A DNA stretch of 64,000 nucleotides, from NCBI GenBank assembly GCA_020819635.1, contig GCA_020819635.1_4533.1, one strand, 5' to 3'. Made by a program: the position numbers and the translations under genes. Origin of the DNA: Escherichia coli. Lineage in GTDB: Bacteria; Pseudomonadota; Gammaproteobacteria; Enterobacterales; Enterobacteriaceae. Positions 2,443 to 56,271 of this stretch are shown here, piece by piece. The notes below the pieces were generated by a model. It did no database searches and was not told the origin of the DNA. It saw nothing but the letters and a program-made list of their open reading frames with translations. The stretch's first letter is position 1; every line of letters starts with the position of its first letter.

Positions 2443-3051
2443 ATGCAGATAGTATGTGATTGGGATTTAGTTGTGGCTCCGTTAGATGTTGCTTGGTTAG
2501 AATGGTTGAATAAGATTAGTGGCCTTGGTGTTAAAATCGACACATTCACAAAAAATGCAGATTATGATCTTACCAACTATTTTCCTGGTTTCAGGGAAGA
2601 GTTCAACATAGATCCTTACGGATTTCTGGATAATCCTCATCTCTACGATACAATGGGTTTTGTTCCAGGTATGCCAGATTTCTTAAAGTATGTTTCAAGG
2701 AAAGGTAGCAATCTTTTGATCGCGAGTGTGACAAAAGGTGGTCACTTAAGTTCTAAACATAAGCATGTTTTAAGAACATTAGATACGATTGATTTTAGCA
2801 AAGGATCTGGCAACGGCTTTTTTGCTACGAAAGAAAAATACTTATTGCCTTGTGATATAGCAATAGATGACAGGGCTGATAACCTACTATATTTTCCAGA
2901 TGAAGTGGTTAAAATATATTTTAATACGCCTTATAAAGATAACCATCTAGAAGAACTAAAGAAAAAACCAAATGTTGTGATCACAGGTTTAGAAGATCAG
3001 TGGCTAACATGTTTGGATGTTTTTAACACTTTGAACAATTTTAAAAACTAA
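2443..3051 (+). CDS. putative 5'(3')-deoxyribonucleotidase-like HAD hydrolase
   Basis: N-terminal CDWDLVVAP (DxD-like) and C-terminal IAIDDRADN resemble NT5C/HAD motifs; weak. Confidence 0.35.
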   Translation: MQIVCDWDLVVAPLDVAWLEWLNKISGLGVKIDTFTKNADYDLTNYFPGFREEFNIDPYGFLDNPHLYDTMGFVPGMPDFLKYVSRKGSNLLIASVTKGGHLSSKHKHVLRTLDTIDFSKGSGNGFFATKEKYLLPCDIAIDDRADNLLYFPDEVVKIYFNTPYKDNHLEELKKKPNVVITGLEDQWLTCLDVFNTLNNFKN

Positions 3052-3060
3052 GGAGAAAAA

Positions 3061-4059
3061 ATGACAAAACAGATTTCGGCTAGTATTATTGCGCATTCCA
3101 TCACTGAAGACGGAAAAGAGATTGTAACTTTTGAACTAGAATATCCACGTATTATTCATTCAGAATTGATGACTCACCGCCTGTTCAGTCGTAATGCTGC
3201 TTCTAGCCGTGCTATACCTGTTAAAACACTGATTGAAATGGTGCGAAATCAACCTGCTCGTCCTTATCGTTTTGGGGCTAACCAACCTGGTATGCAGGAT
3301 AAAGGTGTTGATCATGACGCTCTTATTGATGCAGGTTATACTGCTCAAGAGTGGTGGGATCTTGCCGCGCTTAGTGCAGCACGTTTTGCAGAAGAATTTT
3401 CTTTGGCAGGGTACCACAAACAAGTTGCAAACCGTCTTCTGGAACCTTTCCAACGAATTAAAACAGTTCTGACAGCAACAGAATATGAAAATTTCTGGTG
3501 GCTACGTGATGACAAAGAAGCCGATCCTACTATCGAAGCTTTGGCTAAAGAGATGCACAAAGAGTATGAAGGATCTACACCAGAAGTGCTGAAACCAGGG
3601 CAATGGCACACACCTTATGTAGACCATTTCTATGATACTATTGGCACAGAAGGTGACGATCATTTTGTTTTTGGTGGATACTACGTTCAAAATGAATCTG
3701 GAGAAGTCGTTGTGCTTACTTTGGAAGAAGCCAAAGCTATTTCAGCTTCGTGTTGTGCACAGGTTAGCTATCGTCGTTTAAATGCAACTAAAGATAAAGC
3801 TTTAGATATCTATGGTCGCTTGCTGACTGGGCGCAAGGTTCATGCTTCTCCGTTTGAACATCAAGCCACTCCAATGCAAGAAACATGCGAACAATATGGA
3901 GAGAACTGTTTTGAAGATTTGTTTATCAATGCTCCTTGGGATTTTAACTCTTGGGAACCAGGTATTACCCATGTAGATCGTAATGGTAAGTTTTGGTCTG
4001 GCAATTTCAAAGGCTGGATTCAACATCGTCAACTTTTAACAAATCATACTAAATGGTGA
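3061..4059 (+). CDS. flavin-dependent thymidylate synthase (ThyX)-like protein, divergent
   Basis: THRLFSRNAASSRA matches the ThyX signature RHR-x7-S...R, but the first Arg is Thr. Confidence 0.5.
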   Translation: MTKQISASIIAHSITEDGKEIVTFELEYPRIIHSELMTHRLFSRNAASSRAIPVKTLIEMVRNQPARPYRFGANQPGMQDKGVDHDALIDAGYTAQEWWDLAALSAARFAEEFSLAGYHKQVANRLLEPFQRIKTVLTATEYENFWWLRDDKEADPTIEALAKEMHKEYEGSTPEVLKPGQWHTPYVDHFYDTIGTEGDDHFVFGGYYVQNESGEVVVLTLEEAKAISASCCAQVSYRRLNATKDKALDIYGRLLTGRKVHASPFEHQATPMQETCEQYGENCFEDLFINAPWDFNSWEPGITHVDRNGKFWSGNFKGWIQHRQLLTNHTKW

Positions 4060-4103: not shown

Positions 4104-4157
4104 ATAGCACAATACTGGGAGGAGGTGAGTCCTCCCATTCAAAATGAAGGAGAAAAT

Positions 4158-4568
4158 ATGTCATTAGTAAATACTACAACTTGGGCTACCGTAAGCATGT
4201 CTACTGTAATGTCTACCCCTATCTGGAAACTAGAATCAAATAAACACAATGGCAATATCCCACACGAGAAACAAAATGCTGTTATTAGAGCGTCGCTTGT
4301 AATGCTGGGTATGGCTGAAGATTCACACTATTCTGTTGAGCGTAATGTGAATATCCGAAGCAATAACGATAAGCGAGTAGTGTTTGCAAATACAACGCTT
4401 TTCACTTTCCCTGTTTCACCTAATTGTGGTTTTAAACGAATCTATCAAGAAAATGATATTTTTCATTTTGGTGATGAAGAATTTACAGGTTGGGGTGCGT
4501 CACATATTAAGATGGATGATTTCGGTAACTCTTATGATCCTGCGAAAGCAGATGATACTAATCAATGA
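4158..4568 (+). CDS. hypothetical protein
   Basis: ORF from MSLVNTT with AAGGAG RBS. Confidence 0.45.
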   Translation: MSLVNTTTWATVSMSTVMSTPIWKLESNKHNGNIPHEKQNAVIRASLVMLGMAEDSHYSVERNVNIRSNNDKRVVFANTTLFTFPVSPNCGFKRIYQENDIFHFGDEEFTGWGASHIKMDDFGNSYDPAKADDTNQ

Positions 4569-9046: not shown

Positions 9047-10039
9047 ATGCGCTATCTGGTAACAGGTGGTCTTGGTTTTATTGGGAGTGCCGTGGTGCGC
9101 TCTCTTTGTCAAGATCCCAATAACGAAGTTTTTGTCGTTGATAAGATGGGCTATGCAGCAGATATTGAGAATGTAGGCGATATCACTCACGTTAAACTAA
9201 GCATAACAGATTTGGCAAACGAAACCCAGGTCAAAAGTTTAGTAGTAGAGTGCAATCCCGATTTCATCATTCACTTAGCGGCAGAGAGTCATGTGGATAA
9301 TTCTATCAAGAATCCACGAGTTTTCATCGACTCCAATATTATTGGTACATACAATTTATTGGAAGCTGCAAGGCTCCTCCCAAAAAATAAACTTAAGATG
9401 TTCGTACATGTCTCCACAGACGAAGTGTACGGCGATATGGCAGACTCTGGCGTTCCCTTTACCGAAGAGACAGCTTATGCCCCTTCAAGCCCGTACAGTG
9501 CGTCTAAGGCAGCATCTGACCATCTTGTGAAAGCTTGGTACCGTACCTACGGTTTACCTGTTGTGATAACCAACTGCTCCAATAACTTTGGACCTTATCA
9601 ACATCCAGAAAAGCTGATCCCAAAAATCATCACAAGTATCTTGACGAATAAAGAGATTCCGGTGTATGGTAAAGGCGATCAGGTGCGAGACTGGCTTTTT
9701 GTTGAGGATCATGCGCGAGCTATTCTTCAAGTGGCAACAGGTGGAGAACCAGGTCAAACGTATAATGTTGGAACACGTAATCCCAAAACCAATATGGAGA
9801 TCATCTATATGGTTTGTGACTACATGGATGCTGTACATCCAGAAGCAGGAACCTACCCTTCTTCCAACTTGATAACTTTTGTTGAAGATCGTAAAGGACA
9901 TGACTTGCGTTATGAAATCAATCCTTCTAAAATAGAGTCTGAACTGGGTTGGAGTGCAAACTCTACATTTGAACAAGATCTCTACTCAACGATTGAATGG
10001 TACTTAAACAACCCTCAATGGTGGAGTAAGAAGATTTAA
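9047..10039 (+). CDS. rmlB: dTDP-glucose 4,6-dehydratase
   Basis: N-terminal Rossmann motif [10 protein letters not shown]; family-typical [24 protein letters not shown]. Confidence 0.9.
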
Positions 10040-10926: not shown

Positions 10927-11489
10927 AAGTAGAAAAAACAAAAATTGAAGGTGCGGTAATTATCAAACCAGACGTTTATAAAGATGACCGTGGTTTCTTT
11001 TTAGAAACATATAATGAACAAAAATACGAAGATATCATTGGTAGACAAACTTTCGTTCAAGATAACATGTCTAAATCAAACTTCGGTGTTTTGCGAGGAA
11101 TGCACTTTCAAACAAATAATCCGCAAGGTAAGCTTGTTCGTTGTGTAAGTGGGGAAGTATTGGATTTCGCTGTAGACCTACGTAAAGATAGTCCTACTTA
11201 CGGTGCTTGGGACGGTGTTGTTCTTCGTGCACGACACCATACACAGTTCTGGCTTCCACCTGGTTTGGCACATGGTTTTATAGTGTTGAGTATGGATGCT
11301 ATCTTCGAATACAAATGCACAACTCCATACGACCCTTCCAGCGAACAAAGTTTACGTTGGGATGATCCTGATATAGGGATTGATTGGGGCTTCGATATGA
11401 TTTTTGACGAAGATTTTAAACCTATCTTATCAACAAAAGATGCAATGGCTAAGTCTTTTCAACAGCTACGTAGCGAGGGTGTATGCTAA
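10923..11489 (+). CDS. rmlC: dTDP-4-dehydrorhamnose 3,5-epimerase
   Basis: ATGA overlap with rmlA; cupin-type RmlC sequence (GMHFQ...); ORF-table start at 10803 is upstream extension. Confidence 0.85.
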
Positions 11490-12325
11490 CATATCTGGTA
11501 TTGGGTGGTAATGGACAACTGGGACAAGCTTTACGTAAAGTGGCTCCTTCAAATGTGTCTTTAATTTATCCTAAAGAACGTGTAGATATTACAAATTTTG
11601 AAGCTGTGCGAAACGCTATTATTGAAGATTATGTAGATGGTGTTATTAATTGCGCTGCTTATACGGCTGTAGATAAAGCAGAACATGATTTTGCTACTGC
11701 TTTGGCTGTTAATGCCTATGGCCCTGCAAATATTGCGGCAGTGTGCAGCAAACTTAAAATTGATTTTGTGCATATTTCTACAGACTATATTTTTAATTAT
11801 TCTCATCCTATTTTTGAAGATACTACACCTAACCCGATAAACAATTATGGGTATACGAAAGAACTCGGTGAAAAAATGGTGCGAGGAGTTAACCCGAACG
11901 CATATATTATTCGAACAGCGTCTGTATATAGTGAATTTGGAAATAACTTTCTAAAAACTATGTTGTCTCGCTATAATGATGGACAACGTGATTTTACTAT
12001 CGTTGCAGATCAGTTCTCTTGTCCAACATATGCCCCAGATTTAGCAGAAGCTATTTTTGAAGTATTAAAAACAGGTTGGTCAAGATCTGTAAAGACTTAC
12101 CATTTTGCAGGAAGCCATCTTATTTCTTGGGCGGAGTTTGCGGAAAAGATCTTGACACAGATGCCAGAACCTGTTAAGATATCGGCGGTATCAGCTTCAA
12201 CCTATAATGCTCCAGCAGCACGTCCGGTGAAGTCACAACTAGTAACCAGTCACTATCTTACAAAATCAGATTTAAATAAAGGTATTGAACGGTCTTTAGC
12301 AGTATTACTTAATAAGGAGAGGTAA
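11483..12325 (+). CDS. rmlD: dTDP-4-dehydrorhamnose reductase
   Basis: N-terminal LVLGGNGQLG Rossmann motif; position after rmlC. Confidence 0.85.
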   Translation: MLTYLVLGGNGQLGQALRKVAPSNVSLIYPKERVDITNFEAVRNAIIEDYVDGVINCAAYTAVDKAEHDFATALAVNAYGPANIAAVCSKLKIDFVHISTDYIFNYSHPIFEDTTPNPINNYGYTKELGEKMVRGVNPNAYIIRTASVYSEFGNNFLKTMLSRYNDGQRDFTIVADQFSCPTYAPDLAEAIFEVLKTGWSRSVKTYHFAGSHLISWAEFAEKILTQMPEPVKISAVSASTYNAPAARPVKSQLVTSHYLTKSDLNKGIERSLAVLLNKER

Positions 12326-12585
12326 TGGAATTTGTAATTTTTGGTAAACCTAACTGTCAATTTTGCGAAATGTCAAAACAACTATTAACCATGCGCAATA
12401 AACAGTTTGAATATTTAAGTCTTGACCAAGACTACGATTTAGAATCAATGACTAAAACAGTTGTTGATCTTACCGGAGTTCCTCCACGCACATTTCCACA
12501 AATTTTGTCTGAAGTGAACGGGGAGGTAACATACGTAGGCGGTTTTACCGAACTGCGTGATCTCATGGCTCAAATTGCGGAGTAA
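12325..12585 (+). CDS. glutaredoxin/NrdH-like redoxin
   Basis: 86 aa with CQFC active site; context next to RNR genes. Confidence 0.65.
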   Translation: MEFVIFGKPNCQFCEMSKQLLTMRNKQFEYLSLDQDYDLESMTKTVVDLTGVPPRTFPQILSEVNGEVTYVGGFTELRDLMAQIAE

Positions 12586-42003: not shown

Positions 42004-42372
42004 TTATTCAATGCAAGCATTATTTGCATCTTCAATGCGATCTTTCACCCACTGAATACGTAACTCGTTGGTATGACACGCCAAGTTTATACACTCTGAA
42101 AGGTAATCCATGCAATCTGCATTGAACGGAAGATTGTAGTCCAGCCCTGCACATGTAAATTGTTTCCTCATTTCATATTTCAAACGGTCTAACAAATGAT
42201 CACGCCATCTTCTATCTTCTTCTCTAGTTGTCTCACCAACAAAATCATCTATATAGTCTACCAGACAACCACATAAGCCACTCGTTGTGCGATTCATTGC
42301 AGGATAGTTGGCAATCCATGCTTTATAGAAGCGAAGCAATGTTGCACTGCTCAACGGAATACTATTTGTCAT
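42004..42372 (-). CDS. paralog-family protein, member 2 (unknown function)
   Basis: FYKAWIANYP...GLCGCL...LPFN...CHTNELRIQWVKDRI. Confidence 0.55.
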   Translation of the reverse strand: MTNSIPLSSATLLRFYKAWIANYPAMNRTTSGLCGCLVDYIDDFVGETTREEDRRWRDHLLDRLKYEMRKQFTCAGLDYNLPFNADCMDYLSECINLACHTNELRIQWVKDRIEDANNACIE

Positions 42373-42706
42373 TTTTCTCTCCTTCGTAATCTTGAATTCT
42401 ATCTAGCACCCATTGTATACGATGTTTATTTTTATGGCAAATATGTTTTTTATGTTCGAAGGTGTATTCCTCATAACCACCTTCATTAAACGGGAAATTG
42501 TAATCCAATCCTGCACTAATAAACTGTGATTTCATCTCCTGTTGTAGACGAGGTAACAGTTCATCAGGATATGTTCCCTCTACATACTTAATCAAACATA
42601 TGCACAAACCACTCGTTGTGTGACCTTCTACCTCACCAGCAAGCCAAGCTTTGTAAAACTTCATTAGACGTAAACTACTCAACGGAACATTTTTACTCTT
42701 TTGCAT
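42362..42706 (-). CDS. paralog-family protein, member 1 (unknown function)
   Basis: FYKAWLAGEV...GLCICL...FPFN...CHKNKHRIQWVLDRI. Confidence 0.55.
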   Translation of the reverse strand: MQKSKNVPLSSLRLMKFYKAWLAGEVEGHTTSGLCICLIKYVEGTYPDELLPRLQQEMKSQFISAGLDYNFPFNEGGYEEYTFEHKKHICHKNKHRIQWVLDRIQDYEGEKNDK

Positions 42707-44250
42707 GACAATCTCCTCTCATCGTTAGCCATCTTTCATGGCAATCATCAATCACCAACATCATACGATCAATCTTAGGGAATTACAATCGAATTATCAT
42801 AGGGGATTCCTATCAATTATCCCATATATACCGATTATTTTTGACACCCCACTCTTGTATAAAAAGTAACCCAAAATATCTACGGGGAGAGATTATTTCG
42901 ACACACCCTGTTTCATGGCAATCGTGGCAAGAATATCTAATAGAATCAATATCATATGGCAATAATCATGGCGTATACGTAAGAAGTGCTTAACGCGAAT
43001 TTTCGGGCCGTCAGGTCCACGCAGCGACAATTCCCAAATATCATGAGAATGAGAATAATTATCATTCGTATTCAATGACTTATGCAAGGCTCATGCCAAC
43101 ATAGCGACAAGGTGGGCCACTTGATTATAAATCACACAAACACTTATTTATCAATGGTTTGGCAACTTCATCATATGACGGAACAATGTCAACCGATCCT
43201 GCTCATGACAAGCAGACTATTATTTATATGAGAATGATTATTATTTAAACGTTTATTAACATAAAAGCCAAAATAAATCAAGAATTTTCTGATTTTATTT
43301 ACGTTTAAGAGAACGTGCTCAACATATCGCTACGCGATAGTATTCGCCCCCAAAAGATTAGCCTTTATTTTCTTATATGTTTATACACTATGTGCACACT
43401 ATGCAACCTGTCGCTATTCGCTCATGTTGCTACGTGCAATTATTCATCTTGCTAATGATTTCATCTTGTAATTACCACAATGATTATTGTTATTGCGCTA
43501 ATGTTATGATCTTGGTAATTACATATAATGCTAATAATAAGCCAGCGCAATAAGTGTAAGCGTCATTACGCTTGCAATTATTGCAAGCTACGCAGTAACA
43601 AGAAATAACCGTCACCGATGGTTATGATTGTTGGGGTGTAGTTGGCTTATTATTAGCTCGCTATGTGTCCGGCATAGCGTGCTAATGATGACTCTATGAA
43701 TGATTCGTTTTGTAATGATTTCATTCAGGCACTATTATGGCAATAGTTATTATTTTAATGGTTTCGTTTGTTATTGTTCGTTAGTTGGTTGTTTTGTCGT
43801 GTTATCGTTATCCTGCTTAGTATTCATCATGGTTTGATTGTTTGTCGTTATCAATCATCTTGCTACTATTCCTTTGATTATGATTAGTTTGCTTATTGTT
43901 TTACGTTGTTTGTTGGTTAGTTGTTGCGAACTATTATCAACATTATAGTTATGCGCTTATATTGCATAGATAATCATGGATAGATGATAATGGTTATCAT
44001 TGCACTAGAAAGGAGGTAAAAGGGTGTTTTTGATGGTTTGTTGTTGGTTGTTGATCGATTTTAACCGCTCTAAATAGCTCTCTAACAGTTTGTTACCCTG
44101 GGAGGTATGGTTATTCGTTTAATGGTTGATTAGCTCGATACCGCGATTTATTCAGTTTTGTTCTGTGTCGGTTTTTCATAGGCGAAAGCTATCAACATTA
44201 TTCGGGCAAAAAGAAAGGGCGCTTGATGCGCCCCCTTATTTTGTTGTCGA
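42707..44250. other. non-coding AT-rich island with short palindromes and strand-skewed GT-rich tract
   Basis: no ORF of 60 aa or more over about 1.2 kb; palindromes TTGCAATTATTGCAA, CGCTATG...CATAGCG; three copies of the AGAAT(C/G)A..TCAT motif also found at 55.7 kb. Confidence 0.5.
44214..44245 (-). terminator. intrinsic terminator
   Basis: minus strand GGGCGC-atcaa-GCGCCC followed by TTTCTTTTT. Confidence 0.55.
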
Positions 44251-44670
44251 TTATAACGCTTCATAGATTGAGTAGATCCGGTTTGCCAGGTCATTACGAA
44301 AGCGGAATTTTTCATCACGTTTGATCATCAGATCCTTAAAACCGCATTCTTTCAAGGCTTCATTAACTTTATGGCGGCAAACGTTCATATTATCCTGCGC
44401 GTCACCAATAAACTTATTGCTGTGATGCATTGCTTTGATCTCTTCCTCTAATACCAGGGCAACTACACGGACCGGATCAAGCTGATATGCGGTAACATCC
44501 ATGCGGCATTGTAAACGGCTTTTAACATCGTTTACCGGATATACTGCAACCTCTTCCCCGTCAACGTTCACGATAACCAATTTACCATCGATTTCGAAGC
44601 CTTTGGCGGCGCTACCGTGACAAAAAGCGTTATCGAAGGAGTAAGCTGGATTATTTGATTTAATGTTCAT
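44251..44670 (-). CDS. hypothetical protein
   Basis: 139-aa ORF. Confidence 0.5.
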   Translation of the reverse strand: MNIKSNNPAYSFDNAFCHGSAAKGFEIDGKLVIVNVDGEEVAVYPVNDVKSRLQCRMDVTAYQLDPVRVVALVLEEEIKAMHHSNKFIGDAQDNMNVCRHKVNEALKECGFKDLMIKRDEKFRFRNDLANRIYSIYEAL

Positions 44671-55463: not shown

Positions 55464-55465
55464 TC

Positions 55466-55494
55466 TTGACAAGCCCAGGGATCGGGCTTATACT
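55466..55494 (+). promoter_or_regulatory. strong sigma70-like promoter
   Basis: TTGACA, 17-nt spacer (itself an AGCCC...GGGCT inverted repeat), TATACT. Confidence 0.5.
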
Positions 55495-55499
55495 GTTTT

Positions 55500-55700
55500 A
55501 CATACAGAAGAGGAAGCGCCACCCCACGGCGTAAAGGCGGGGCTAACATACCAGGGGGCACTGGTTGGAAGGTTGATCGCCGGTAGGCTGGGTGCTATAT
55601 ATTTGTAAAGAAATGTAAAGATAAAATAATCGCTTGCTTTCCTGGCTGGATCTGTTATTCTTATTACATGGCGAGGGGACACGGGAGCGCGAGACAAACA
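55500..55700 (+). ncRNA. candidate small non-coding RNA, GC-rich and structured
   Basis: directly downstream of a consensus promoter; no plausible ORF; locally GC-rich in an AT-rich genome; only Pro/Arg-rich antisense ORFs. Confidence 0.2.
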
Positions 55701-55722
55701 CCGCCCCTGCGCGTCATTCTCT

Positions 55723-55838
55723 AAATGAGAATGATTGTCATTTACCTTATTAAATAAGAATCAATCTCATTTATAAACTTAAATGCGAATCATTATCATT
55801 TGCATTTCCATATGAGAACTCTTCTCATTTTCACCTGC
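55723..55838. repeat. four tandem 29-bp repeats with palindromic core (operator or iteron-like)
   Basis: copies start at 55723, 55752, 55781 and 55810 (exact 29-bp period); core aAATGaGAATnaTtnTCATTT with inverted-repeat symmetry. Confidence 0.6.
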
Positions 55839-55851
55839 ATAAAAATTTTTG

Positions 55852-55910
55852 TAAACTTTAAATTTTGCTTTTGTACTTTCATTTTTGTAAAAGCAAAAAA
55901 ACTTTAAATA
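55852..55910. repeat. AT-rich direct repeat, copy A (about 58 bp)
   Basis: TAAACTTTAAATTTTGCTTTTGTACTTTCATTTTTGTAAA...ACTTTAAATA; about 85% identical to copy B. Confidence 0.5.
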
Positions 55911-55989
55911 CTGTGGGCGCGCAAAATTTTTAAAATTTTCCTTGACTTTTGAGTTTTGTTTTGTATCTAACATTTTAAGATAATTTTCC

Positions 55990-56047
55990 TAAACTTTAAA
56001 TTTTGGTTTTCAACTTTCACTTTTGTAAATTCTTAAAAAGTTTAAAT
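55990..56047. repeat. AT-rich direct repeat, copy B
   Basis: TAAACTTTAAATTTTGGTTTTCAACTTTCACTTTTGTAAA...GTTTAAATA, 138 bp downstream of copy A. Confidence 0.5.
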
Positions 56048-56177
56048 AATTTGAGGGATTTTTGAGATAAAAGATAGTGGGAATTTGATATAACCTTTAA
56101 TCTTATTGGTAAACCTTCAGGAACCCACTCAGATCGAATCCTAGTGATGCAAACTGAAAAAGACAAGGGTTTGTATA

Positions 56178-56216
56178 GGACAAAATAACAGGCTCTCTAC
56201 GGTGCTGTAGGAGCCT
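56178..56216 (-). terminator. intrinsic terminator of the minus-strand operon
   Basis: minus strand AGGCTCCTACAGCACCGTAGAGAGCCT hairpin followed by GTTATTTTGT. Confidence 0.5.
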
Positions 56217-56271
56217 TATTTCTGTGCTACAAAGTGACACCTTTGTTCTAAAAATGAAAAAAGTTAAAATA

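Follow-up and report, generated by a model that had tools for sequence, protein, structure and literature searches.

What does a 1.5-kb stretch without genes do in a phage genome that is otherwise densely coding? The question is raised by positions 42,707–44,250 (hereafter, the island) of a 64,000-nucleotide sequence deposited under Escherichia coli (assembly GCA_020819635.1, contig GCA_020819635.1_4533.1), called here the window. An earlier note on this DNA had described the island as non-coding, with palindromes, a skewed tract, and repeated motifs, and had suggested for it the role of a regulatory hub, an origin, or a recombination boundary. Of these, the boundary came closest, in the narrower sense of physical ends, which the note had not considered, as the island is very probably the region where the linear virion chromosome begins and ends, with a short direct terminal repeat (DTR) present here only once. 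The regulatory role was borne out in part, through operators resembling Fur boxes and, at the left end, promoter-like sites, and no specific support was obtained for an origin. In addition, a 164-nt element predicted to fold on a single strand was detected in the island.

The Island Probably Holds the Ends of the Virion Chromosome

A similarity search with positions 42600–44350 identified the phage as a phAPEC8-like Phapecoctavirus (Stephanstirmvirinae), this segment being 97.8% identical to that of Escherichia phage phAPEC8_ev052 and 92–100% identical to those of several dozen other phAPEC8-like phages. Matches were found in 90 phage records, with at least 80% of the segment covered in 45 of them, and an assembly artefact was rejected on this basis. 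In phAPEC8, the equivalent is an unannotated gap between gp18 and gp17 (42362–42706 and 44251–44670 in the window, both on the minus strand), in which the single feature is a predicted terminator. Because the flanking genes are all encoded on the minus strand, this strand was taken as the genome orientation, and the first and last genes are thus those at 42362–42706 and 44251–44670, respectively. The absence of open reading frames (ORFs) of 60 aa or more proposed in the earlier note was confirmed, with a spurious 64-aa TTG-started ORF (42893–43087) as the only exception.

Many records of the genus were found to begin or end inside the island in a distant-mode search, and the ends of this phage were transferred from relatives 93–100% identical to it in the island, plus phage phi92. 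The linear record of phage Schickermooser (NC_048196) has 613 bp ahead of its first gene and 1257 bp beyond its last one, and its first 329 bases, identical to its last 329, map to the window from 43319 down to 42991; a terminal repeat of 328 bp has been published for this phage (PMC6563267). An independent record, WPEC4, starts exactly at 43319 and ends at about 42991, and those of 3A1_SA_NWU and 118_SA_NWU, 100% identical over the matched part of the island, end at 43320. Moreover, phi92, which has been studied more than the other relatives, is annotated with DTR-L and DTR-R, of 343 bp, at the homologous place, together with an untranslated tail of 1110 bp and a leader of 355 bp, in the same layout as in the window. 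These data agree with published reports, in which Stephanstirmvirinae genomes are stated to end in direct terminal repeats (PMC12695924), a 342-bp repeat was found in BME3 with PhageTerm (PMC12210895), and read-based evidence for terminal repeats was reported for relatives (PMC6563267, PMC12210895, PMC9862379). Hence, the records of the relatives show the hallmarks of T7-type termini, namely identical sequence at both ends and fixed, sequence-defined ends.

Alignment of the repeat from five lineages (the window, phiWec179, phi92, Klebsiella phage phi1_175008, and Citrobacter phage Tr1) revealed that both of its borders lie in invariant motifs, the interior being much less conserved. At the left border, TGTTG^AGC...TCTTAAA (the caret marks the boundary), TGTTGAGC and TCTTAAA are invariant in the five lineages, as is TCGCGTTAAGCA at the right border, TCGCGTTA^AGCA, and the sequence (G/A)^AGCAC on the forward strand is common to both boundaries. 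The repeat lengths predicted from these motifs range from 321 to 344 bp, thus bracketing the 343 bp annotated in phi92. Inspection by eye also showed, 4–7 nt before the boundary, an inverted repeat of differing sequence in the five lineages, with one mismatched pair in phiWec179. Both phAPEC8 and Schickermooser carry an ARNold annotation for the terminator of the last gene, whose hairpin and T-run are kept in four of the five lineages, with a different hairpin at this place in Citrobacter phage Tr1. All these features are compiled in Table 1.

As the repeat borders of the relatives map inside the island, the window shows the junction form, with the tail, one copy of the repeat, and the leader. 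The order in a concatemer, or in a collapsed sequence, would be last gene and terminator, 930-bp tail, one DTR, 284-bp leader, and first gene, the repeat being expected at both ends of the virion DNA, as shown for the relatives. By analogy with T7-type phages, the ends would be made at two related sites, TGTTG^AGCAC and GCGTTA^AGCAC, and the single copy at the junction would then be duplicated by DNA synthesis during packaging; a Vequintavirinae relative has been typed as T7-type by PhageTerm (PMC9862379). The terminus as such is known biology, annotated in phi92 and reported for Schickermooser, and the island is in this respect ordinary in kind, a chromosome end with a short terminal repeat, which is, however, previously unrecognised in this sequence and in most records of the genus.

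Table 1. Features of the island, with positions in the window and the data on which each assignment is based.
Feature	Position	Strand	Basis or remark
Conserved structured element, 164 nt	43526–43689	+	RNAalifold, pair counts, folding z-scores, covariance model
H1, closing stem	43530–43543 with 43644–43657	+	RNAalifold
H2, long hairpin, holds palindrome 43572–43586	43547–43584	+	RNAalifold
H3	43586–43593 with 43636–43643	+	RNAalifold
H4, tip hairpin	43605–43625	+	RNAalifold
H5, 3'-adjacent hairpin, CGCTATG-n7-CATAGCG	43659–43679	+	RNAalifold
T/G-rich, C- and A-poor tract (genome-forward: A/C-rich, G-poor)	43700–44060	+	Skew peak 43731–43930
Intrinsic terminator hairpin of last gene (phAPEC8 gp17/rV5 gp159 homologue)	44214–44236	−	Terminator scan
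Fur-box-like site R1, TGATAATGGTTATCA	43985–43999		About 250 nt after last gene; overlapping 19-mer matches Fur consensus at 15/19
Weaker Fur-box-like site R2, TGCGAACTATTATCA, 3 mismatches	43925–43939		Island position ~308
Untranslated unique right-end tail, 930 bp	43320–44250	−	Schickermooser and phi92 record ends mapped; without conserved ORF
Inverted repeat ATCGC-TAC-GCGAT	43326–43338		Few bases before left DTR boundary
Left DTR boundary motif TGTTG^AGCACGTTCTCTTAAA	43304–43324	−	First base of repeat = left chromosome end = 43319
Promoter-like TTGATT, 17 bp, TAATAA preceded by TGT	43253–43281	−	By eye; reads into genome, ~40 nt inside left end
Fur-box-like site A	43229–43243		In repeat, directly downstream of promoter-like −10
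Fur-box-like site B	43045–43064		In repeat; two overlapping sites 6 bp apart
DTR, ~329 bp, single copy (collapsed or concatemer-junction form)	42991–43319	−	Schickermooser, phi92, boundary motifs
Right DTR boundary motif GAAAATTCGCGTTA^AGCAC	42986–43004	−	Last base of repeat = right chromosome end = 42991
Untranslated left-end leader, 284 bp	42707–42990	−	Motifs common to phi92 leader
Two leader promoter-like sites, GGGTGTGTCGAAATAAT-type motifs	42921–42892, 42863–42834	−	Leader of left end
24-bp tandem repeat in leader	42772–42821	−	Tandem Repeats Finder

A Strand-Specific Folded Element Inside the Right End

The most conserved part of the island, at about 43500–43720, is 97–100% identical within the genus and 72–80% identical across genera, and it contains the two perfect palindromes pointed out in the earlier note (TTGCAATTATTGCAA and CGCTATG-n7-CATAGCG). 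Both palindromes are real, but instead of isolated protein-binding sites, they turned out to be helices of one larger, strand-specific element. The RNAalifold consensus of the plus strand consists of five helices with 54 pairs, at −71.1 kcal/mol, compared with 46 pairs and −50.9 kcal/mol for the minus strand. Among 18 distinct sequences, 99.3% of the cells were standard pairs, vs. 92.0% in shuffled controls and 24–52% when the partners were slid, and compensatory changes on both sides were present in 14 of the 54 pairs; the observed values were reached by none of 500 shuffles. In a ten-sequence alignment of the plus strand, 481 cells were Watson–Crick pairs, 52 were G.U, and a single one was A.C. 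This disparity between G.U and A.C indicates that the pairing is maintained on the plus strand only, as would be expected of single-stranded RNA or DNA rather than of a cruciform or a symmetric protein site.

Folding energies pointed in the same direction, both with RNA parameters (−76.4 kcal/mol, z −7.95, for the plus strand vs. −56.5 kcal/mol, z −4.83, for the minus strand) and with DNA parameters (−45.7 kcal/mol, z −8.65, vs. −36.9 kcal/mol, z −6.35). A covariance model of the element retrieved exactly one copy per genome in 20 loci, including that of Klebsiella phage KP2025, which had not been used in building it. No match of the window to Rfam was obtained at gathering thresholds, and only sub-threshold chance matches (E = 0.4–4) to plant microRNA, snoRNA, and leader families were found in the island. 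A pattern scan of IMG/VR for the invariant hairpin detected just four contigs, with lengths of about 150 kb in three cases and 97 kb in the fourth.

Comparative evidence thus indicates that selection maintains the fold on a single strand, whose 5' end coincides with the right terminus. A multi-hairpin structure confined to one specific DNA strand is also what characterises single-strand signals such as the G4-type ssi or primosome assembly sites. Our preferred reading, put forward with low confidence, is that the element may act in cis as a single-strand signal during regeneration or packaging of the right end. It lies 200–370 bp inside the right end and could be, for example, a priming or recognition site on a displaced strand: strand displacement from a nick at 42990/42991 would displace the plus strand, on which the element lies just 3' of the repeat, the right place to prime the copying of the latter.

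Next to the element lies the skewed tract. The description of positions 43750–43950 as nearly free of adenines did not hold (17% A, 53% T, 19% G, and 11% C), whereas its strong skew did, as the keto (G+T) skew of 0.44 is the strongest in the 64 kb (mean 0.005, sd 0.094). Forward-strand poverty in G (5–11%) is common to all five lineages, the sequence of the tract not being conserved. Substitutions on the plus strand showed 0.204 C>T vs. 0.116 G>A changes per site (p = 0.03), without a significant difference between A>G and T>C. The T/G-rich tract and the C>T excess are weakly suggestive of a strand that is often single-stranded.

Fur-Box-Like Sites at the Chromosome Ends

The three copies of a repeated motif claimed for the island were found at 43050–43064, 43229–43243, and 43985–43999, as was the tandem array claimed at 55.7 kb, consisting of four units (55726–55827) with a spacing of about 29 bp; Tandem Repeats Finder did not call this array and gave only minor repeats within the island. 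All six matches to the phage consensus TGAGAATnATTCTCA with two mismatches or fewer in the 64 kb fall in the island or in the array. The copies match the Fur consensus of E. coli, GATAATGATAATCATTATC, at 14–17 of its 19 positions (16 of 19 in the case of GAGAATGAGAATAATTATC, in site B), and the copy in the repeat of phi92 (site A) is a perfect 7-1-7 box, TGATAATCATTATCA. Judged by its sequence, the repeated motif is a Fur box, indistinguishable from that of E. coli.

The positions of the boxes are kept despite diverged surroundings, at about 80 and 255–275 nt from the left end within the repeat, and, as one or two boxes, at about 250 and 308 nt after the last gene in the right tail, across lineages. 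A box at the position of R1 (island position 249–252) was present in every lineage examined except Citrobacter phage Tr1, which showed none with two mismatches or fewer, and the counterpart of R2 is a good box at the homologous place in the phi92 group and the Klebsiella phage. Pairs or triplets of boxes offset by 6 bp were detected in the window (43045/43051 and 55779/55785), in phiWec179, in phi92, and in the Klebsiella and Citrobacter relatives; such overlapping sites 6 bp apart have been described for Fur clusters of E. coli (PMC2189734).

As a further approach, a symmetrised matrix was made from 27 phage boxes only and used to scan the surroundings of the enterobactin cluster in E. coli K-12 (49 kb). 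The six best matches, and 9 of the best 11, were located in the fepB-entC, fepA-fes, and fepD-entS intergenic regions, which represent 1.5% of the DNA scanned. Regarding the promoter-like sequence next to site A, its −35 block TCTTGATTT is kept in four of the lineages, whereas Citrobacter phage Tr1, the fifth, has a single substitution in it (TCTTGCTTT); the promoter-like sequence was absent from the promoter scan because its −10 lacks the final T. Site B overlaps a weak plus-strand match of that scan.

From their sequence and location, it seems likely that Fe-Fur binds the chromosome ends, where it would gate the first transcription or be soaked up. Fur could thus gate the first promoter, be titrated by the boxes, or contribute to the architecture of the ends. 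Our literature searches for Fur boxes in the termini of lytic phages returned none, and both the boxes and the folded element seem to be undescribed within the literature and GenBank records examined. Apart from this, a hairpin (CTGCTCATGACAAGCAG) followed by a T-rich run at 43199–43215 of the plus strand, between the two Fur-like boxes of the repeat, scored as terminator-like.

Alternative Explanations

Several ORFs of 30–70 aa have been annotated in the island of ETEC-TG, EP57, and WPEC4, and a stop-free run of 94 codons extends along 42709–42990, as could be the case for decayed or unrecognised coding sequence, either small genes or a gene with an unusual start. Most annotators, however, left the island empty. 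The matches to its ORFs in phiWec179, 79% identical, mostly carry stops or frame breaks; in phi92 and the relatives from Klebsiella and Citrobacter, only the folded element or promoter motifs are matched, a conservation at the DNA level, and no ORF of the island stays open in these more distant relatives. As ORFs were not kept across lineages and the alignment is rich in indels that are not multiples of three, hidden coding sequence was rejected, and we regard it as extremely improbable. A GTG-started 17-aa peptide following an AGGAGG at about 44001 was also discarded, since, like the other small ORFs, it is not kept in phiWec179. A replication origin in the island, or the island itself being one, would fit the AT-richness (35% GC), the palindromes, the folded element, and the strongest strand skew of the window, and the equivalent ORF-free region of phage rV5 holds iteron-like ACTGTTTAC repeats; T7 also has secondary origins near its ends. 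Nevertheless, we found in the island a single DnaA box, with one mismatch and no cluster, and no iteron family, its repeat families being the Fur-like boxes and short pairs at chance level. Moreover, the cumulative GC skew turns with gene orientation and not specifically at the island, and nothing links the replication proteins to it, which makes an origin quite unlikely. The same conclusion on GC skew was drawn by the authors of the rV5 genome (PMC3606486).

As for the folded element, the main alternative is that it might be a small non-coding RNA gene on the plus strand, antisense to its neighbours, the island being then mainly an RNA locus. This is compatible with the presence of a terminus, and we consider it possible, if rather doubtful. 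The strong covariation, the G.U-rich helices on one strand only, and a plus-strand RNA fold better than that of the minus strand by 20 kcal/mol would all be expected of such a gene, and a TATAAT (TACAAT in phiWec179) lies directly 5' of the closing stem, whose covarying pairs are all in its inner part, as fits a transcript start inside the AT-rich outer stem. Yet this −10-like hexamer lacks a good −35 and is not kept in phi92 or in the Klebsiella and Citrobacter relatives, no T-run terminator follows H5, and no Rfam family matches. In a similar way, the boxes could belong to a phage-encoded DNA-binding protein, as its operator, or to the terminase small subunit, given that in each half-site the phage consensus departs at one position from the ideal 7-1-7 box of Fur and that the boxes cluster at the chromosome ends, where packaging proteins act. 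The motif occurs, however, in three phage groups of different taxa (Stephanstirmvirinae, rV5, and T5-like), which, apart from the boxes and one gene, have no similar DNA here, and the four-unit array is 12 kb away from the chromosome ends, which argues against a site used only for packaging. A motif that crosses taxa in this way, is a perfect Fur box in phi92, and, through its matrix, recovers genuine E. coli Fur operators makes a phage-encoded binder less likely than Fur, and we judge it unlikely.

Some considerations weigh against our own interpretation of the island as a chromosome end with Fur boxes and a single-strand signal. The ends are transferred from the records of relatives, many records of the genus, that of phAPEC8 included, are opened elsewhere and have no annotated repeat, and both the cutting chemistry and the T7-type duplication are proposed by analogy. 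In the case of the folded element, neither a promoter nor a terminator on the plus strand was convincing, part of the G.U pairs is favoured simply because the structure was predicted on the plus strand, and the substitution bias expected of an often single-stranded strand is seen only weakly. As to the boxes, Fur binding is predicted from sequence, the promoter beside site A was read by eye, and sigma-70-like promoter matches were not enriched in the island (12 vs. 10.3 expected from shuffles); the same was found for terminator-like matches (3 vs. 1.7).

Other Features of the Window

The leader also holds the ribosome-binding site of the first gene. An inverted repeat in it (42772–42823, ATAGGGGATTCCTAT) has a counterpart in phi92 (GATAGGGAAATCCTAT, phi92 locus extract 520–550), in both cases just after a GGTATATAT..ATAATTGATAGG motif common to the two phages, and it could serve as the operator of an early regulator. 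Close relatives vary in their left-end genes, the first gene having lengths of 345, 369, 375, 381, or 405 bp while the island itself is kept.

At the other side, the last gene encodes a protein of 139 aa (PHROG 12277, without a Pfam match) which is 92% identical to rV5 gp159 (rV5 locus extract 4119–4538), with 86% identity at the DNA level; the last gene of phi92 is a different one, Gp30.8-like. The phage of the window and rV5 belong to different subfamilies, and the DNA adjoining the shared gene is not alignable, which points to a recent exchange or to an unusually strong constraint on a gene that always adjoins the non-coding region.

A second non-coding island was found at 55464–56271. It starts with a near-consensus promoter on the plus strand (TTGACA-17-TATACT, 55467–55496), followed by a GC-rich stretch (55497–55771) that is matched at 69–76% identity by well over 100 records of phages, those of Klebsiella, Cronobacter, Pectobacterium, and Proteus among them, and which is, on this conservation, a candidate conserved non-coding RNA. 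No tRNA or tmRNA genes were detected within the 64-kb window.

The "PHIRE promoters" of phAPEC8 are GC-rich, hairpin-forming 20-mers (GTAGGGCGGCAATGGTGCCG) located before each small gene (9908–9927, 11323–11342, 12173–12192, and 12554–12573 in the phAPEC8 locus extract), at places that correspond to the gene cassettes of the window to the right of 44.7 kb. In the three of the four cases that were covered, they lie just downstream of −10-like sequences, and they look like 5'-leader stem-loops rather than promoters. Their possible kinship with the motifs of the island was rejected, as they are unrelated GC-rich hairpins downstream of sigma-70 promoters.

Finally, records labelled as Campylobacter, Acinetobacter, or Pseudomonas phages were 90–99% identical to E. 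coli phapecoctaviruses or vequintaviruses, their host labels being probably wrong, or the lysates mixed.

Significance

The likely ends at 43319 and 42991 allow the correct orientation and annotation of this genome and of the phAPEC8-like records opened at arbitrary positions, and the apparently empty 1.5 kb need no longer be read as a gap or be mis-annotated with small ORFs, in phages that are widely isolated for therapy against pathogenic E. coli. The presence of Fur boxes and of a strand-specific folded element is well supported by comparative evidence, their functions being proposed from it. Taking both together, we tentatively suggest that the 164-nt plus-strand element belongs to a new type of single-strand structure acting in cis, whether as an antisense RNA or as a DNA signal for priming or packaging, which Stephanstirmvirinae would require for regenerating or packaging the right end and of which rV5-like phages have an architectural analogue. 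Host Fur boxes would, in the same tentative sense, be a conserved part of the terminal-repeat regions in three groups of virulent enterobacterial phages, Stephanstirmvirinae, Vequintavirus, and the T5-like ones.

If true, the first events after DNA entry would depend directly on Fur or the iron status of the host, and iron sensing would be tied to the part of the phage DNA that comes into the cell first; alternatively, the phage genome would serve as a sponge for Fur. The boxes would also be a testable candidate for the long-unexplained repeats at the injection-stop region of T5. The regeneration of short terminal repeats is known mainly from T7, and the folded element offers a tractable signal for its study in large myoviruses.

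Comparison with Known Systems

Compared with the E. coli Fur box (GATAATGATAATCATTATC; 7-1-7 form, TGATAATnATTATCA), the phage sites are alike in the number of matches to the consensus, the perfect copy of phi92, the overlaps of 6 bp, and the recovery of the enterobactin operators. They differ in their place, the terminal repeat of a virulent phage and not iron-uptake promoters, and in the preference of the phage consensus for G/C at one position per half-site (TGAGAAT).

In rV5, a 2.6-kb ORF-free region has been published (104013–106618; PMC3606486). As in the window, this region is directly downstream of the homologue of the last gene and holds copies of the Fur-like box, and it contains an element of about 200 nt with a long AT-rich closing stem, arms, and a 3'-adjacent hairpin, which folds better on the same relative strand. 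By contrast, it lies between convergent transcription units. The alignment of its DNA with the island was limited to the flanking gene and the boxes, the covariance model of the folded element gave no rV5 match, and the boundary motifs of Stephanstirmvirinae are absent from it; for these reasons, we consider the region as analogous and not homologous. The copies of the rV5 element in Vequintavirus are nearly invariant, a 33-nt deletion at a hairpin tip being their only change, and are thus uninformative on covariation. About a dozen copies of ACTGTTTAC or ACTGTTCAC, with a spacing of about 11–15 bp, were also observed in the ORF-free region (rV5 locus extract 2950–3130), an iteron-like array without a counterpart in the island.

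The array at 55.7 kb (55723–55830) gave blastn matches in T5-like phages. In one of them, saus47N (record ~9.6 kb, extract 885–1075), there are repeated copies of the Fur-box-like unit in the untranslated portion of the left terminal repeat, beside paired DnaA boxes. The injection stop signal of T5 has been placed in that repeat region (Repeat Region 3) by Davison, in a preprint that names DnaA boxes there and gave no clear mention of Fur in a term search. According to the preprint, T5 shares with the island an untranslated stretch of about 1.2–1.7 kb, tied to the terminal repeat, with many repeats and palindromes and better conserved than the adjoining genes, to which the array of the same Fur-box-like unit has to be added. 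However, the repeat of T5 is 10 kb long, the match is to the 55.7-kb array of the window and not to the island, and phAPEC8-like phages are not known to transfer their DNA in two steps. The island was likewise devoid of DnaA-box pairs, which in a T5-type injection stop signal are set in large inverted repeats.

The junction of the T7 group consists of a 160-bp repeat with untranslated flanks and early promoters at the left end, the repeat being duplicated during packaging. It resembles the island in its short and exact direct repeat, found once at the junction, its long non-coding stretch, its promoter-like sites for the host polymerase just inside the left end, and its secondary-structure element in unique DNA beside the right copy of the repeat. 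In contrast to T7, the phage of the window is a 150-kb myovirus, without sequence similarity to it and without promoters for a phage RNA polymerase, and its folded element has 164 nt and multiple helices instead of a simple hairpin; we know of no T7 counterpart of the Fur boxes. The duplication of the T7 repeat is ascribed, in a passage of PMC4281155 that cites Chung & Hinkle 1990 and Molineux 2006, to strand-displacement or primase-initiated synthesis with a hairpin intermediate, and we infer by analogy that a T7-like mechanism could operate in the phage of the window.

Among the closest known systems are also the DTRs of phi92 and Schickermooser, at the homologous position. The differences are that the repeat of the window is single and unannotated and that its sequence is only patchily similar to that of phi92, and neither the boxes nor the folded element has been described in these phages, within the literature and records covered here. 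The organization coincides otherwise, with the same order of last gene, terminator, tail of about 1 kb, repeat, leader of about 0.3 kb, and first gene, the same boundary motifs, and the Fur-like boxes and the folded element in the same places.

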